DNA of 64,000 nucleotides from Bacteroidota bacterium (GTDB lineage Bacteria > Bacteroidota > Bacteroidia > Bacteroidales > GCA-2748055), in assembly GCA_024640885.1 (NCBI GenBank), contig JAHEEC010000006.1, positions 5,238 through 69,237 on the forward strand, written 5' to 3'. Positions 7,183-48,338 of the stretch are shown in pieces (the stretch's first letter is position 1; the number at the start of each line of letters is the position of its first letter). Made by a program: the position numbers and the translations under genes. Under the pieces are notes generated by a model. It did not search any database. It saw only the letters and a list, made by a program, of their open reading frames with translations, and was not told the origin of the DNA.

Positions 7183-7905
7183 ATGACACTTAAAACACTA
7201 ACCCTGGTGGGTGCACTATGCTGTGTTTCAACCTCCTTTAATCCCAGTATCGCACAGGAAGCGAAAATCCCTGCGGATCCTGGGTTTGAATGGTTGTTCA
7301 ACGGCGAGGGAACAACCGGATGGCGGGGATATAAAAAGGACAAACTTCCCGGGAAATGGTCCGTGGAGGAGGGTACGTTACACTTTAATCCCAAGGGCGA
7401 AGGGAAAGGCGGGGACATTATCTATGATAAGATCTATTCCAATTTCCACCTGAAGCTGGAATGGATGATCGAGGAGGGAGGCAATTCGGGGATCTTTTAC
7501 CTTGGATCGGAGGACCCGGCCTTAAAATCTATTTATTATACCGCTCCGGAAATGCAGGTCCTGGATAATGAAAGGCACCCCGATGCCAAGTTGGGCAGGG
7601 ACGGGAACCGGATGTCCGGTTCACTCTATGATCTGATTCCGGCAAATCCTCAGAATTTCAGGGGAGCAGGGGAGTGGAACCAGGTAGAGGTGATCCACAG
7701 TGATGGTCATGTGATCCATATGATGAATGGAGAGAAGGTAGTGGAATACCAGGCTGGAACCCCCGAATGGATCGAGCTGGTGGCCGGTTCCAAATTTCCG
7801 GCACTGAACCCCCACTGGGCCGATCTACAGAAGGAGGGTTATATCGGCCTGCAGGATCACGGCAACAATGTGTGGTACAGGAATATCCAGATCAAACAAT
7901 TATAA
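7183..7905 (+). CDS. DUF1080 (3-keto-disaccharide hydrolase family) protein, secreted
   Basis: 240 aa. Signal peptide, then W..Y....P..W.V.....L, GGNSGIFY and GLQDHGNNVWYRNIQIK motifs typical of DUF1080. Confidence 0.85.
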   Translation: MTLKTLTLVGALCCVSTSFNPSIAQEAKIPADPGFEWLFNGEGTTGWRGYKKDKLPGKWSVEEGTLHFNPKGEGKGGDIIYDKIYSNFHLKLEWMIEEGGNSGIFYLGSEDPALKSIYYTAPEMQVLDNERHPDAKLGRDGNRMSGSLYDLIPANPQNFRGAGEWNQVEVIHSDGHVIHMMNGEKVVEYQAGTPEWIELVAGSKFPALNPHWADLQKEGYIGLQDHGNNVWYRNIQIKQL

Positions 7906-36271: not shown

Positions 36272-36345
36272 TGAACTAGGCAGGAGTCGAACCCGCAACC
36301 TCCTGATCCGTAGTCAGGTGCTCTATCCAGTTGAGCTACTAGTCC
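36272..36345 (-). tRNA. tRNA-Arg: tRNA-Arg (anticodon ACG)
   Basis: Hand-folded cloverleaf. Acceptor GGACTAG/CTAGTTC, D arm GCTC-AACTGGATA-GAGC, anticodon arm CCTGA-CTACGGA-TCAGG (ACG), T arm GCGGG-TTCGACT-CCTGC. Discriminator A; no encoded CCA. Confidence 0.95.
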
Positions 36346-39351: not shown

Positions 39352-39699
39352 TTAAAATCTCTTCTCCCTGATCCGGGCTTTCTTGCCGGTAAGCTCGCGG
39401 AAGTAAAAGATCCTTGCCCTTCTTACACGTCCGTATTTATTGATTTCCACCTTGTCAATAAACGGGGAGGAGCTGGGGAAGATCCTCTCAACTCCAATGT
39501 TTCCTGACATTTTACGAACGGTAAAAGTTTCTGTGTTTCCTTTTCCACGGCGCTGGATCACAACCCCCCTGAATTGCTGGATGCGCTCTTTGTTCCCTTC
39601 ACTGATCTTGTAGTGAACGGTAACGGTATCACCGGCACTGAATTTTGGGAGCTCAGCCTGGGGTGCATATTCCTGGTCAACAACCTTCATTAAATCCAT
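39352..39699 (-). CDS. rplS: 50S ribosomal protein L19
   Basis: 115 aa. [26 protein letters not shown]...G.G..ETFTVRK...GVERIFP..SP is the L19 signature. Confidence 0.97.
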
Positions 39700-41494: not shown

Positions 41495-41601
41495 AACTTT
41501 CAAACTTTAAGACTTTACAAACATTATAGACTCGGCAAACTTTTTTCGAAACGCAAAGATTTCATTTTTCTCACTAACTGGCAACCTTTGTGATTGAAAA
41601 A

Positions 41602-41617
41602 CATGAAATATTTCATG
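41602..41617. promoter_or_regulatory. perfect 16-nt palindrome CATGAAATATTTCATG upstream of the dipeptidase gene
   Basis: Self-complementary over all 16 nt. It lies 108 nt upstream of ATG 41494 and downstream of a minus-strand TAAATTTG box at 41639-41646. Confidence 0.3.
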
Positions 41618-41668: not shown

Positions 41669-41698
41669 TTGGGATCCCTCCGATTCTGATTATCTTTG
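41669..41698 (+). promoter_or_regulatory. orphan plus-strand promoter (aTTG-N19-TATCTTTG)
   Basis: The -7 element is exact (TAtcTTTG, 41691-41698) and TTG lies 19 nt upstream. No plus-strand CDS follows. Confidence 0.5.
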
Positions 41699-41781
41699 TG
41701 GCATAGTATTTGTAGTTCTATTATCAGGAGATAGGTATAAGCTTTAAGCAAAGCGTTCATAGAATAAGATTTCTAGTCATA

Positions 41782-41828
41782 AGTAGTTTAGTTAGTAGTT
41801 TAGTTGGTAGTTTTAGTTAGTGTTGTAG
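41782..41828 (+). repeat. degenerate 12-13 nt tandem repeat (AGTAGTTTAGTT x2, GGTAGTTTTAGTT, AGTGTTGTAG)
   Basis: Read directly from the sequence. The first two units are identical. Confidence 0.8.
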
Positions 41829-41866
41829 AAAAGGGTCAGTCGCCAGATGGACCCTTTTCTTTTTTT
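41828..41866 (+). terminator. intrinsic terminator (10-bp perfect stem plus T7), plus-strand polarity
   Basis: GAAAAGGGTC-N12-GACCCTTTTC followed by TTTTTTT. The T-tract runs into the stop codon (41865-41867) of the convergent Fe-ADH gene, so the hairpin may also act on that transcript. Confidence 0.6.
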
Positions 41867-43007
41867 AGAAAACATGCGACAATAGCTCAGCCCGTTCACC
41901 ATCCGATAACCTGTAATTGATCCCGCCTGCCCGGTTCCTGTTCATCAGTGAGAGGATCTCTTCGCGTTTTGAAGCATCTATGGACGCCTCAGGACAGGTG
42001 ATGGGACTTCCCAGGGAGGAAAAAAGATTCTCGAATGCTTTAATGGTCTCCTCCACCGACTGAAAGCCAAATAGCTCCTTTCCCAGGTAAGTGATCCGGT
42101 CACCGGCCCTTTCCCGCATGGTTTTCATCCATGCAGGATACATAATGGAGAGGGTGGCTCCGTGAGGCGTATCGTAGAGGAACGAGAGCACATGGCCCAG
42201 TGCATGGACCCCCCAGTCACCCGACTCGCGGCCGTACAGGGTCACGTTGTTCAGTGCATTGGTGGCTGCCCACATGATCCTTGCCCGCAGCTCATAATTG
42301 TCGGGGTCCTTCATCAGGGAGGGTCCGTATTGCATGGCCTCCCTTATGATGGCCACCACGAAACGGTCGGAAAGGGAAGCATCTCCTCCACCGAACCAGG
42401 CTTCCAGGCTATGGGCCACCAGATCCACTATACCATATGCGGTGTAATTTAGCGGGACCGAAAGGGTATACTGTGGATCAAGGAATGAATGGACAGGATA
42501 CATCAGGTCGTTCCTGTAACCAATTTTCTCCATGGTTTCAGGATTCTGAAGGACTGCAACCGCATTCATCTCGGTTCCCGTGGCCGCAAGTGTAAGCACT
42601 GCAATAAGAGGCAGTGCCCCGGTGGGTCCATGGATCCCTTTCATCACCTTCCAGGCATCGCATCCGTCGGCGATGCAGATGGCAATGATCTTGGCCGAGT
42701 CGATGACGCTTCCACCTCCGACTGCGACCACAAGATCGACCTTCATTTCGCGTCCGAGCCTGGCTGCCCTGTTCACGTCTTCTGTGAGAGGATTTGGTTT
42801 GATGCCACTGAATTCGGTGATGTCAATATCATTTTGATTCAGCTGGTCTCTGGTATCCTGCAGACTGCCGTTGCGGAGTACCGATCCTCCACCGTAAACC
42901 ACCAGTGCCCTGCTTCCAAGCAGTGCGGCCTGGCTGCCGAGTTCACCGACCACTCCGCGGCCGAAATGGAGTTTTGTGGGATTGAATGCAGTAAAATTAT
43001 TCTTCAT
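41865..43007 (-). CDS. iron-containing alcohol dehydrogenase (YqhD/butanol dehydrogenase-like)
   Basis: MKNNFTAFNPTKLHFGRG matches the YqhD-type N-terminus. GGGSVIDSAK and ATGTEMN motifs. ATG 43007 overlaps the anmK end by 11 nt. The ORF-track start at 43073 is GTG. Confidence 0.9.
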   Translation of the reverse strand: MKNNFTAFNPTKLHFGRGVVGELGSQAALLGSRALVVYGGGSVLRNGSLQDTRDQLNQNDIDITEFSGIKPNPLTEDVNRAARLGREMKVDLVVAVGGGSVIDSAKIIAICIADGCDAWKVMKGIHGPTGALPLIAVLTLAATGTEMNAVAVLQNPETMEKIGYRNDLMYPVHSFLDPQYTLSVPLNYTAYGIVDLVAHSLEAWFGGGDASLSDRFVVAIIREAMQYGPSLMKDPDNYELRARIMWAATNALNNVTLYGRESGDWGVHALGHVLSFLYDTPHGATLSIMYPAWMKTMRERAGDRITYLGKELFGFQSVEETIKAFENLFSSLGSPITCPEASIDASKREEILSLMNRNRAGGINYRLSDGERAELLSHVF

Positions 43008-44088
43008 ATCGATCTTCATTTTTGGTTGTGTAGAGGGTGCCTGCCGAAAGATCCTTTTCGCCGCCCGTGGCACTGGCGAGGCAATTTACCTCACCCCGGA
43101 TGCGCAGCAGGCCCAGGAATGCAAATACCAGTGCCTCCTTGAACCGGATCAGGAGCAGGTCGGGGATCTCCAATCTGGCCACGGCATGGTATTTTAACCG
43201 CTCCAACAGGGATTGGTTCAGTGCGCCCCCGCCGGTAACGAGGATGGAGCTTACCTCAGCGCGGTTGCTCCCCATGCTGATCTGCATGGCAATATGCTCC
43301 ACGGCGGTGGCCATCAAGTCTTCCACCGGCAGTTTGCTTTGTTCAAGAATGGGATGAAATTGGTCCAGGAACCACTCCCTTCCCAGTGATTTAGGAGGCG
43401 CCTTGCGGTAAAACGCCAGGCTGTTCAGAGCCTGCAACAGGGCATGGTCCACCTTTCCGCTCCGGGCGATCATTCCACCGTCATCATACTGGAGCCCTCT
43501 CAGTCCGGCAATCCAGTCCAGGGCCATGTTGGCGGGGCAGAGATCAAATGCGATCCGCTTTCCCGAGCCATCATCAAAGGAAATATTTGCGAAACCGCCA
43601 AGGTTCAGGCACCCATCATAATCACCGAAAAGCAACCTGTCCCCCACAGGAACAAGGGGTGCACCCTGTCCGCCCTGGGAGACATCCGGTTTCCTGAAAT
43701 CATTGACCACTGCAATTCCCGTATTCTCTGCCATGATCCCCCCATGACCCGCCTGCACGGTGATCCCCCGTTCAGGTTCATGAAGAATTGTGTGTCCGTG
43801 GGAGGAGATCAGATCAGGCCTTAAGCTGTGGGCGGAGTGGAAATCATTTAACAATCCTGCATAATGCAGTCCCAGTTCAATGTCAAGCGATTCAATTTCA
43901 GAGGCATTCAAATTGCAGGCTCCTGCCAGTCTCTCCCTGAGATATAAAGGATAGGGAAAGGTTTCTGCAGCAAGGATGTTAAATTTCCATGTTGATCCGT
44001 TAAGGAAGAAGTCACAGCAGGCAAGGTCAACCCCATCCATGGAGGATCCCGACATTAAGCCTGTTACCCTGTATTGATCAGGTTTCAT
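42997..44088 (-). CDS. anmK: anhydro-N-acetylmuramic acid kinase
   Basis: 363 aa. GLMSGSSMDGVD N-terminal motif, with an overall AnmK layout. Confidence 0.9.
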   Translation of the reverse strand: MKPDQYRVTGLMSGSSMDGVDLACCDFFLNGSTWKFNILAAETFPYPLYLRERLAGACNLNASEIESLDIELGLHYAGLLNDFHSAHSLRPDLISSHGHTILHEPERGITVQAGHGGIMAENTGIAVVNDFRKPDVSQGGQGAPLVPVGDRLLFGDYDGCLNLGGFANISFDDGSGKRIAFDLCPANMALDWIAGLRGLQYDDGGMIARSGKVDHALLQALNSLAFYRKAPPKSLGREWFLDQFHPILEQSKLPVEDLMATAVEHIAMQISMGSNRAEVSSILVTGGGALNQSLLERLKYHAVARLEIPDLLLIRFKEALVFAFLGLLRIRGEVNCLASATGGEKDLSAGTLYTTKNEDRYEE

Positions 44089-46763: not shown

Positions 46764-48338
46764 ATGGAACTGTTAACACAAACATTGGTGTTGCAATCAC
46801 CCATGGCCATCTATTTGCTGGTTGGAGGAGCTTCATTGCTGGTGGGGACAGGTGTTGCATTTATCCTTTTCAATATGGTGGTAAAAAGGAAAAGCAACAA
46901 CCTGATCAAGGAGGCGGAAGGAGAAGCGGAAATGATCAAACAGCAAAAGATACTTCAGGCAAAGGAGAAGTTCCTTCAGCTGAAGGAGGAGCATGAGAAG
47001 ATCATCAATGAAAAGAATAGCAAGCTGAATCAGCGCGAAAATGAGGTGAAGCAGAAGGAGTTTTCTGTGTCACAAAAACATGAAGAGGGTCAACGGAAGA
47101 ACAAGGAATTGGATGCGGTCCGTGAGAATCTCGAAACACAACTGAAAATTGTAGAGAAAAAGAAGGAGGAGGTGGAGCGGTCCCATCGCATGCAGGTGGA
47201 GCAGTTGGAGACCATCTCGGGTCTTTCTGCCGAAGAGGCCAGGGACCAGCTGGTGGAGTCACTGAAGGAGGAAGCCAAGACCGAAGCAATGTCGCTTATC
47301 AATGAAATCGTTGATGAGGCAAAGATGACGGCCAACAAGGAAGCCAAAAACATCGTGATCAAAACAATCCAGCGGGTTGCAAGTGAAACAGCCATTGAAA
47401 ATTCAGTGACCGTATTCCACATCGAATCGGATGAATTGAAGGGGCGGATCATTGGCCGGGAAGGACGTAATATAAGGGCCCTTGAGGCCGCCACAGGTGT
47501 GGAAGTGATCGTGGATGACACCCCGGAAGCGATTATTCTCTCCGCGTTTGATCCGGTCAGAAGAGAGGTGGCAAGGTTGTCCCTGCACCAGCTGGTGACC
47601 GATGGAAGGATCCATCCGGCCAGGATCGAGGAGGTGGTTGCAAAAACCAGGAAACAGATCGAGGAGGAGATCATTGAAGTGGGAAAAAGAACTGCCATAG
47701 ACCTGGGCATCCATGGCCTCCATCCTGAACTGACCCGGATGGTGGGAAAAATGAAATACCGCTCCTCTTACGGCCAGAACCTGCTTCAGCATTCCAGGGA
47801 AGTGGCCAACCTCTGTGCCATTATGGCCACCGAACTGGGGCTCAATGCAAAGTTGGCCAGGAGGGCAGGGCTGTTGCATGATATCGGGAAAGTACCCGAT
47901 GATGAGCCGGAAATACCCCATGCAGTCTTCGGGATGAAAATGGCCGAGAAGTACAAGGAAAAAGATGAAGTATGCAATGCAATCGGTTCACACCACGATG
48001 AGGTGGAGATGACCACCTTGCTTGCGCCCATCGTGCAGGTCTGCGATGCCATTTCAGGTGCAAGGCCCGGTGCAAGGCGGGAGGTGGTGGAGTCCTATAT
48101 CAAGCGGTTGAAGGAACTGGAGGCCATGGCGCTCTCCTATCCCGGTGTATTGAAGACCTATGCCATTCAGGCAGGACGGGAACTGAGGGTCATCGTGGGC
48201 AGCGAGAAAGTGAGCGATAAGGATGCGGAAACCCTCTCCTTTGACATCGCCAAGAAGATCCAGGACGAGATGACCTACCCGGGTCAGGTGAAGATCACCG
48301 TGATCCGTGAAACACGCGCCATAAGCTACGCCAAATAA
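46764..48338 (+). CDS. rny: ribonuclease Y
   Basis: 524 aa. N-terminal TM, coiled coil, KH motif [15 protein letters not shown] and HD motif LLHDIGK. ATG 46803 (MAIYLL...) is an alternative start. Confidence 0.95.

Follow-up and report, generated by a model that had tools for sequence, protein, structure and literature searches.

We examined a candidate small RNA (sRNA) gene in a 64,000-nucleotide (nt) stretch of DNA from a Bacteroidota bacterium (contig JAHEEC010000006.1, positions 5,238 to 69,237 of the forward strand), which at its full length is referred to here as the window. The candidate occupies the plus strand of a spacer between two minus-strand genes, whose products were assigned as an Fe-ADH and a C69 peptidase, and it is made up of the following elements.

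41669-41866, plus strand: the sRNA unit, in the spacer between the Fe-ADH and C69 dipeptidase genes, both on the minus strand
41669-41671, plus strand: -33-like TTG, which aligns with the conserved TTGCAGG of relatives (family consensus cTTGCAGG)
41691-41698, plus strand: -7 box TATCTTTG, of the Bacteroidota TAnnTTTG type, 19 nt after the TTG
41702-41866, plus strand: predicted sRNA of ~165 nt, its 5' end placed from the promoter with ~12 nt of uncertainty
41702-41712, plus strand: conserved 5' segment CAUAGUAUUUG (family CAUAcUAUUUG), nearly invariant in the family alignment
41713-41781, plus strand: variable 5' domain with two predicted hairpins, of varying length and with a sequence that cannot be aligned between relatives
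41782-41828, plus strand: UAGUU array, 47 nt and cytosine-free, consisting of 12-nt double units (R)G-UAGUU-UAGUU and then the linker GUGUUGUAG
41801-41821, plus strand: most conserved core, the 21-mer TAGTTGGTAGTTTTAGTTAGT, identical in 10 of 12 loci selected by protein similarity and in 52 metagenome contigs
41827-41860, plus strand: terminator hairpin of 11 + 3 bp with a GCCA loop, probably bidirectional; this is the 10-bp stem read from the letters, extended in RNAfold by one pair on the outside and three on the inside
41860-41866, plus strand: U7 tract and end of the sRNA, overlapping by 2 nt the ADH stop codon (TAA, minus strand, 41867-41865)

Direct reading of the sequence bore out the layout described in the original prediction, which had been made from the letters of the window. 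The TTG (41669-41671), the 19-nt spacing and TATCTTTG (41691-41698) were all in place, as were the two hairpin arms, GAAAAGGGTC (41828-41837) and GACCCTTTTC (41850-41859), separated by a 12-nt loop region and followed by T7 (41860-41866). The tandem units were found where they had been placed, with AGTAGTTTAGTT at 41782-41793 and again at 41794-41805, GGTAGTTTTAGTT at 41806-41818, and AGTGTTGTAG at 41819-41828, and the count of at least seven TAGTT pentamers proved to be exactly seven on the plus strand, between 41713 and 41818. The one figure that required correction was the length of the gap, given as 361 bp: 370 nt separate the C69 ATG (41494) from the ADH stop (41865), and 361 is obtained by counting from an upstream TTG at 41503. 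The unit had also been said to hold no ATG-initiated open reading frame (ORF) and to carry stop codons in all three frames; accordingly, only TTG-started ORFs of 28 and 38 amino acids (aa) overlap it in the window, and TAG occurs in every frame of the array. These stops and the unalignable, length-variable 5' domain leave no conserved reading frame.

Folding of the window RNA with RNAfold gave a minimum free energy of -34.9 kcal/mol (z = -2.57), with two 5' hairpins, a weakly paired array and the terminator; the array is only weakly structured because it lacks cytosine. Tandem Repeats Finder described the array as 3.2 copies of a 12-nt period with 89% matches, and the spacers between the UAG triplets of its regular units measure 2, 4, 2, 4, 3, and 4 nt. 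Within the array core, given as UAGUUGGUAGUUUUAGUUAGU, the stretch AGUUGGUAG (41803-41811) is identical to the common tRNA D-loop sequence (A)GUUGGUAG(A), which may be a coincidence. TAGTT occurs 40 times on both strands of the whole window compared to a shuffle mean of 60, and ~0.03 occurrences are expected in 106 nt. Chance is ruled out less by these counts than by conservation, since the unit was found in every related locus with enough sequence.

Relatives were collected in several ways. In a first sample, comparison of the window's ADH protein with species-representative genomes led to Bacteroidales metagenome-assembled genomes with 62-73% ADH identity, and all five of those with the same gene context (5/5) carried the promoter box, the array, and a hairpin with a T-run, with changed stem sequences. 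A metagenome search with the 21-mer TAGTTGGTAGTTTTAGTTAGT returned 52 contigs from sediment, hypersaline, marine, and wetland samples, ~50 of them with the gene neighborhood of the window. Because such a search forces the 21-mer to be invariant, a second, unbiased sample was drawn via C69 homologues; the sRNA was present in six of the six C69-found loci with enough upstream DNA, with the exact 21-mer in four and unit-order or U-run variants in two. In one C69-found locus (L088), the distal units had decayed and contained C, with the terminator-proximal core intact. Altogether, the protein-selected set comprises 12 distinct loci, i.e., the window and 11 relatives (62-73% aa identity for ADH and 69-87% for C69), and the unit was present in all 12, between the Fe-ADH and C69 genes and on the strand opposite to both. 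A check for synteny in related genomes had been proposed with the original prediction, and the region is conserved in the relatives examined; the label "orphan" attached to it there does not hold, as the sRNA is a single-copy syntenic gene of the whole clade.

Only three islands are conserved in the alignment of the protein-selected spacers: the promoter of C69, the promoter of the sRNA, and a third that spans the array, its linker, and the terminator. The remainder is unalignable. Within the third island, the proximal 21-27 nt of the array are conserved base for base, including the spacers, between genomes with 60-85% protein identity. The loci, 557 kb in all, contain one array each, with 3-10 TAGTT units, and the predicted RNA measures 93-172 nt across the family. 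The gene order is M23 peptidase, AnmK, Fe-ADH, sRNA, and C69, with the sRNA alone on the opposite strand, in ~50 of 57 loci. Four loci lack ADH and keep the sRNA beside C69, and in some relatives the unit is present with its hairpin 60-100 nt from the ADH stop. Two further genes belong to this neighborhood in the window, the second of them lying beyond M23.

39352-39699, minus strand: rplS, directly downstream of C69 and syntenic in relatives
46764-48338, plus strand: RNase Y gene (KH + HD domains), 5 kb from the sRNA

The promoter island takes the form cTTGCAGG-N~17-TTATCTTTGTGGCATA, with an extended form TTATCTTTGTGGCATA.TATTTG. A regular expression for the -7 box (TAnnTTTG with T allowed at the second position, then TGG/TGC and CATA) matched in 48 of 58 loci, and the other 10 have box variants, are truncated contigs, or have a different context without a promoter box (L035 and L068). 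Scanning for sigma-70 promoters and terminators, an approach that is not applicable to this phylum, picked up neither the sRNA promoter nor the hairpin; both elements are missed because the consensus is unfit for the phylum and the loop limit of ≤8 nt is unfit for the hairpin. The conserved segment CAUAGUAUUUG downstream of the -7 box may be either the initial transcribed sequence together with a 5' hairpin arm or a second promoter-like box. Behind it, the variable 5' domain carries UUCAUAGAAUAAGAUUU (41756-41772), which resembles the R1 seed of the Bacteroides sRNAs GibS and FopS, and an anti-start motif, UCAUAAG. In ~13 minimum free energy folds, the conserved 5' end (AUACUA) paired over a long range with the UAGUGU that closes the array; this helix was dropped, as the duplex energy was -3.7 kcal/mol for cognate pairs versus -3.35 for non-cognate and -3.4 for shuffled ones.

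At the 3' side, each of the 52-53 distinct ends in the family folds into a hairpin of 10-22 bp, and a U-run comes next on the strand of the sRNA. The stems include at least six unrelated sequences, with three to six standard pair types at stem positions 1-9, and the GCCA loop recurs in 34. Judging from the alignments, the terminator is conserved as a structure and not as a stem sequence. A minus-strand RNA is predicted to form this hairpin as well, after which come UUUUC and a G-free stretch of ~47 nt, 30% C, in which every base is unpaired. The hairpin is probably bidirectional and would also terminate the convergent M23-AnmK-ADH operon: with the A4/U4 extension of the stem, the minus-strand RNA too has UUUUC behind it. 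That it serves the convergent ADH gene only, an outcome named in advance as damaging to the sRNA claim, is at odds with the persistence of the unit without ADH and with its hairpin at a distance from the ADH stop. This persistence, the conserved promoter, array, and terminator islands, and the varied stems all support the claim of a separately transcribed sRNA. From comparative sequence evidence, we consider it very probable that the unit is a real, separately transcribed non-coding sRNA gene, and the existence of a new sRNA family in uncultured sediment Bacteroidales, with an unusual reiterated core, appears well supported.

In line with the statement that the RNA belongs to no named family, Rfam covariance models gave no gathering-score match in the sRNA region of the window. 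The best sub-threshold match was GibS (RF04182), at 18.7 bits versus a threshold of 115 bits (E = 4.2), aligned mainly over the terminator, and the segment 41713-41781 was the source of this weak match. Permissive scans produced only the sub-threshold GibS match, a ctRNA-like terminator, and spurious eukaryotic matches, and no GibS or FopS match at E ≤ 5 was obtained in the 12 related loci, which gave sub-threshold terminator-like matches only. The sole gathering-score match in the window was a tRNA at 36272-36345 on the minus strand, with anticodon ACG (Arg) as read from the alignment. Literature searches on the motif strings and on Bacteroidota sponge RNAs found nothing relevant. Membership in the GibS/FopS family fails both on the covariance model and on the R1/R1' seed (GUGUUUUUCAUAGUAUUAGAUUUAAGGUUAACAAA). 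Positions 41756-41772 share 15 of 17 bases with the FopS R1' consensus (z ~3.2), at an internal site and not at the 5' end; the best family members reach z scores of 3-4.8 as partial matches, and the family median of 0.5 is at background, so that homology to this seed is suggestive in a few members only.

Comparison with RNAs of established mechanism places the candidate between several known designs. Like GibS and FopS of Bacteroides thetaiotaomicron (PMC11697453), intergenic sRNAs of ~100-150 nt from the same phylum, it is intergenic, has a sigma-ABfr-type TAnnTTTG promoter and an intrinsic terminator, and presents a single-stranded, U-rich, C-poor functional region with UAG units. The seed of GibS and FopS, however, sits at the very 5' end and is unrepeated, whereas the tandem pentamer array lies beside the terminator, behind a 5' hairpin domain; likewise, FopS occurs in 14 copies per genome, unlike the new RNA, which is found once per locus at the same syntenic site. 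The CsrB/CsrC and RsmX/Y/Z RNAs of Gammaproteobacteria, which the candidate resembles in layout, are also stand-alone sRNAs with their own promoter and terminator, a reiterated motif, and a copy number that varies between orthologues, a layout that implies multivalent capture of one partner. In those RNAs, the motif is GGA in hairpin loops, whereas here it is UAGUU in an unstructured C-free strand whose proximal spacers are conserved to the base; CsrA is not involved, and no CsrA homologue has been identified in Bacteroides (PMC13370968).

Two Firmicutes proteins recognize motifs of similar composition. Bacillus TRAP binds 9-11 (G/U)AG triplets at 2-3 nt spacing, with (GAGUU)n as a standard ligand, and HutP binds UAG triplets 4 nt apart; the UAG triplets of the array, at spacings of 2, 4, 2, 4, 3, and 4 nt, are reminiscent of these sites in the trp leader and the hut operon. 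Those are cis-acting leader elements for attenuation, however, and not free-standing sRNAs, and no TRAP or HutP homologue is known to us in Bacteroidota. The multi-seed sRNAs RsaE/RoxS and LhrC likewise repeat a short motif in single-stranded regions, but their C-rich motifs complement the Shine-Dalgarno sequence, whereas AACUA, the complement of the present motif, is not specifically enriched at start sites. Bacteroidota largely do without Shine-Dalgarno-dependent initiation.

Conservation at the sequence level of a C-free single strand requires a partner in trans. We tentatively favor a protein as this partner, with base pairing as the main rival; both possibilities, titration of a protein and pairing with AACUA-bearing targets, had been raised in the original prediction. 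In this tentative reading, the array would be the working part of the sRNA: a sequence-specific protein that binds single-stranded RNA and recognizes motifs of the UAG/GUAGU type would dock on it at several sites, making it a multivalent platform or a decoy. Transcription of the ~165-nt RNA would start from the Bacteroidota housekeeping-type promoter TTG-N19-TATCTTTG, and each RNA would hold several protein molecules, following the logic of CsrB/RsmZ with a different motif and a different protein. In this way, the abundance of the sRNA is proposed to set the amount of free protein that reaches mRNA ligands. The most plausible protein candidate would be an RRM-1 protein of the Rbp type, a group that stands in for Hfq, ProQ, and CsrA in Bacteroidota. 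A candidate ligand would be the neighboring C69 mRNA, which has an AAAGU array in its 5' untranslated region (UTR) just before the start codon. Consistent with a platform, the number of units varies and the module occurs in the 3' UTR of another transcript: in L035 (5856-5902) and L068 (3479-3530), an array of eight to nine UAGUU units with a different terminator stands in sense orientation ~25-50 nt past the stop codon of an ECF-type sigma ORF of 168 aa. At neither array was a TAnnTTTG box detected; the context of both, with all products assigned from the translations, includes a MerR/B12-like regulator gene upstream and a convergent YjeF_N-like gene. Precedent for such binding exists, as RbpB of B. 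thetaiotaomicron is an RRM-1 protein that binds GibS and FopS in their single-stranded part, and its crosslinking and immunoprecipitation (CLIP) peaks fall in single-stranded regions of both, where the R1' consensus GUGUUUUUCAUAGUAUUAGAU also holds UAG units (PMC11697453). In vitro, RbpB binds single-stranded RNA, and a threefold repeat of GUAGGAUA was shifted with a Kd of 5.1 µM (bioRxiv 10.1101/2021.04.27.441718).

A stronger version would make this the first protein-sequestering, CsrB-like sRNA of Bacteroidota, in which an RRM-1 protein, or another protein that binds single-stranded RNA, would be captured on the UAGUU array and mRNAs with WAGU arrays in their leaders would thereby be controlled, first of all the divergent C69, with the module reused in the 3' UTR of the ECF-sigma gene; taken as a whole, we regard this version as unlikely. 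Several points weigh against a protein platform in general. No RNP1-type RRM motif was found in any frame of the window or the loci, and the mean unpaired probability of the array is only ~0.45 by RNAfold. The proximal units retain individual spacers (GG, UUUU, and AG), with decay of distal ones seen in L088, and fixed proximal spacers are commoner in a single long specific sequence, for example a seed or a defined ribonucleoprotein, than in a generic sponge, whose spacers tend to drift. All mechanistically studied Bacteroides sRNAs, i.e., GibS and FopS, pair with their targets (PMC11697453). The link between the sRNA and the C69 leader arrays is circumstantial, as long arrays are present in some lineages only.

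The possibility of a base-pairing sRNA with several redundant seeds, which we regard as doubtful though substantial, holds that the UAGUU units, joined in some members by the anti-start motif UUUUUCAUAAG, pair with A/C-rich sites such as AACUA, AAACUA, and CUUAUGAAAA in the start regions of mRNAs in trans and block initiation in the manner of GibS and FopS, possibly with an RRM helper. The build of those two sRNAs, with a sigma-ABfr promoter, a single-stranded U-rich seed, and a terminator, is the same (PMC11697453), the base-level conservation of the proximal 21-27 nt with their spacers is seed-like, several members have CAU anti-start motifs beside the array, and some members as well as positions 41756-41772 of the window resemble the FopS R1' seed (z scores of 3-4.8). 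The pre-array CAU motif is missing in most members, however, and searches for targets in 442 kb of window and locus sequence did not single out such sites. Outside the sRNA gene, neither two adjacent AACUA-type units nor any tested 10- or 11-mer complementary to the array was present in this sequence, and the window-specific 18-mer complement, with up to three mismatches, found in the window only the antisense of the sRNA gene itself. A look at start regions for AACUA, as suggested with the original prediction, showed no specific enrichment: AACTA occurs there at 1.97/kb versus 1.80/kb for TAGTT. Pairing with the start regions of C69, AnmK, and M23 was no better than that of shuffled sRNA (mean z of +0.6, -0.9, and +1.1, respectively). 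The variation of the unit number between 3 and 10 and the portability of the module into a 3' UTR fit multivalency better than pairing. As the search covered 442 kb, specific distant targets may exist elsewhere, a point that weighs against a platform.

Less probable explanations place the function on the other strand, in RNA turnover, or nowhere. In the first of these, which we consider improbable, the conserved element is DNA or minus-strand RNA: the hairpin would be the terminator of M23-AnmK-ADH, and the G-free antisense of the array (CUACAACACUAACUAAAACUACC...) a Rho-loading (rut) or insulator zone that shields C69, the plus-strand RNA being incidental or, just as improbably, serving only to clear read-through by antisense pairing. 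ADH, the antisense of the array, and C69 are indeed co-directional, the window hairpin abuts the ADH stop codon, and the minus-strand RNA has the hairpin, UUUUC, and unpaired C-containing stretch described above; because the array antisense is G-free and predicted to be unpaired, ADH read-through would carry a rut-like stretch ahead of C69. A rut site or insulator, however, needs composition and not an identical 21-mer across genomes with 60-85% identical proteins, and the unit persists without ADH or with its hairpin 60-100 nt away from the ADH stop. Wherever a syntenic locus extends far enough upstream, the plus-strand promoter and U-run are retained, only the L035 and L068 arrays being without a box, and in these two the array stands in sense orientation behind the ECF-sigma gene. 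An endoribonuclease substrate or decoy, in which the array makes the RNA short-lived or competes for a nuclease, appears more improbable still. RNase Y reportedly prefers to cut after G in A/U-rich single strands, and RNase E/G follows the rule RN|WUU; the UAG|UU(U) units of the array, which is single-stranded and composed of A, U, and G only, with G followed by U-runs, resemble these preferences. An RNase Y gene lies 5 kb away in the window, and several loci have, at a similar position, a 524-aa ORF whose upstream region is conserved and which may encode RNase Y. The agreement with these motifs is a resemblance, the linkage of RNase Y may be housekeeping synteny, and the exact conservation of spacer order is left unexplained by a nuclease; we know of no RNA sponge for RNase Y. 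Finally, a functionless, slippage-prone microsatellite between a promoter-like box and a terminator would account for the copy number variation between relatives, for a duplication unit that is a clean 12-mer, and for the hypervariable 7-nt array next door in the C69 5' UTR. We hold this to be very improbable, as a neutral microsatellite would not keep a 21- to 27-nt core identical over divergence at the family level, in a single syntenic position in all 12 of the 12 unbiased loci and accompanied by both a conserved promoter and a terminator that covaries.

To our knowledge, Bacteroides has yielded no Hfq or ProQ homologue, the map of post-transcriptional control across Bacteroidota is sparse, and the Bacteroidota sRNAs with a known mechanism are a handful, all from gut Bacteroides. 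To these, the present family adds an sRNA of environmental Bacteroidales that is single-copy, deeply conserved, and built around a C-free tandem pentamer array. If the protein platform is true, the array would be a defined, high-affinity ligand for isolating the RNA-binding proteins of the phylum and analyzing them in detail, and titration in the manner of Csr/Rsm would be extended to another phylum, another motif, and another class of protein; if the array is a set of seeds, it would define a regulon searchable in complete genomes of the clade. Whichever mechanism holds, the 21-mer is a convenient clade marker for metagenomes and metatranscriptomes.

The leader of the divergent C69 gene carries tandem AAAGU-type units directly before its ATG, in the window at 41495-41522 on the minus strand (GUAAAGUCUUAAAGUUUGAAAGUUAUG). 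Units of this type were also found in L002, L003, L021, L031, L032, L033, L043, L047, and L049; L003, L031, and L047 have ~8-14 copies of (GG/AG/AU)AAAGU, and the copy number varies between near-identical contigs. Among 240 ORFs, the regions upstream of an ATG that are richest in AAGU all belonged to C69 orthologues. These leader arrays are unable to pair with the sRNA, and a WAGU core is common to both; by inspection, pairing of UAGUU with the AAAGU units was rejected on account of a G.G mismatch in every unit. Upstream of the leader, the C69 promoter region (41554-41604 on the minus strand in the window) is strongly conserved, with ATGTTATTCAAT...GTTGGTAGTTTGAtGGAAAAATGAAATCTTGCAG in most loci. 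Eleven nt of the sRNA core recur exactly as the -33 part of this region, GTTGGTAGTTT, and because its -7 part departs from TAnnTTTG in most loci, it may be served by an alternative sigma factor or be a regulator site. A further motif between the divergent promoters, ACCCCCT (AGGGGGT on the C69 strand), occurs in one to three copies ~60-70 nt apart. It sits 100-250 nt upstream of the sRNA promoter in L001, L002, L006, L083, L085, and many metagenome loci, and it is not in the window spacer, which at 370 nt is among the shorter ones.

A scan of viral contigs with an 18-mer gave 10 matches, most of them in coding sequence, which by a rough estimate is about the number expected by chance. Among phage contigs, one type (L074, L075, L077, and L080) has a short array, UAGUUAGUUUAGUUAGUUUAGUUAGUAGUUUUAGUA, with a similar terminator after a 192-aa gene; in L075 it lies at ~7330-7405 on the minus strand, next to ORFs judged from their translations to be capsid-like and portal-like. 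As the viral matches are about as many as chance would give, the phage array may be a coincidence. With regard to the ADH gene of the window, its longest ORF begins at a GTG at 43073, encodes 402 aa, and overlaps the end of AnmK by 77 nt (42997-43073). Because relatives align from about residues 15-26 and their ADH is called at 379-385 aa, the true start of ADH is probably downstream.

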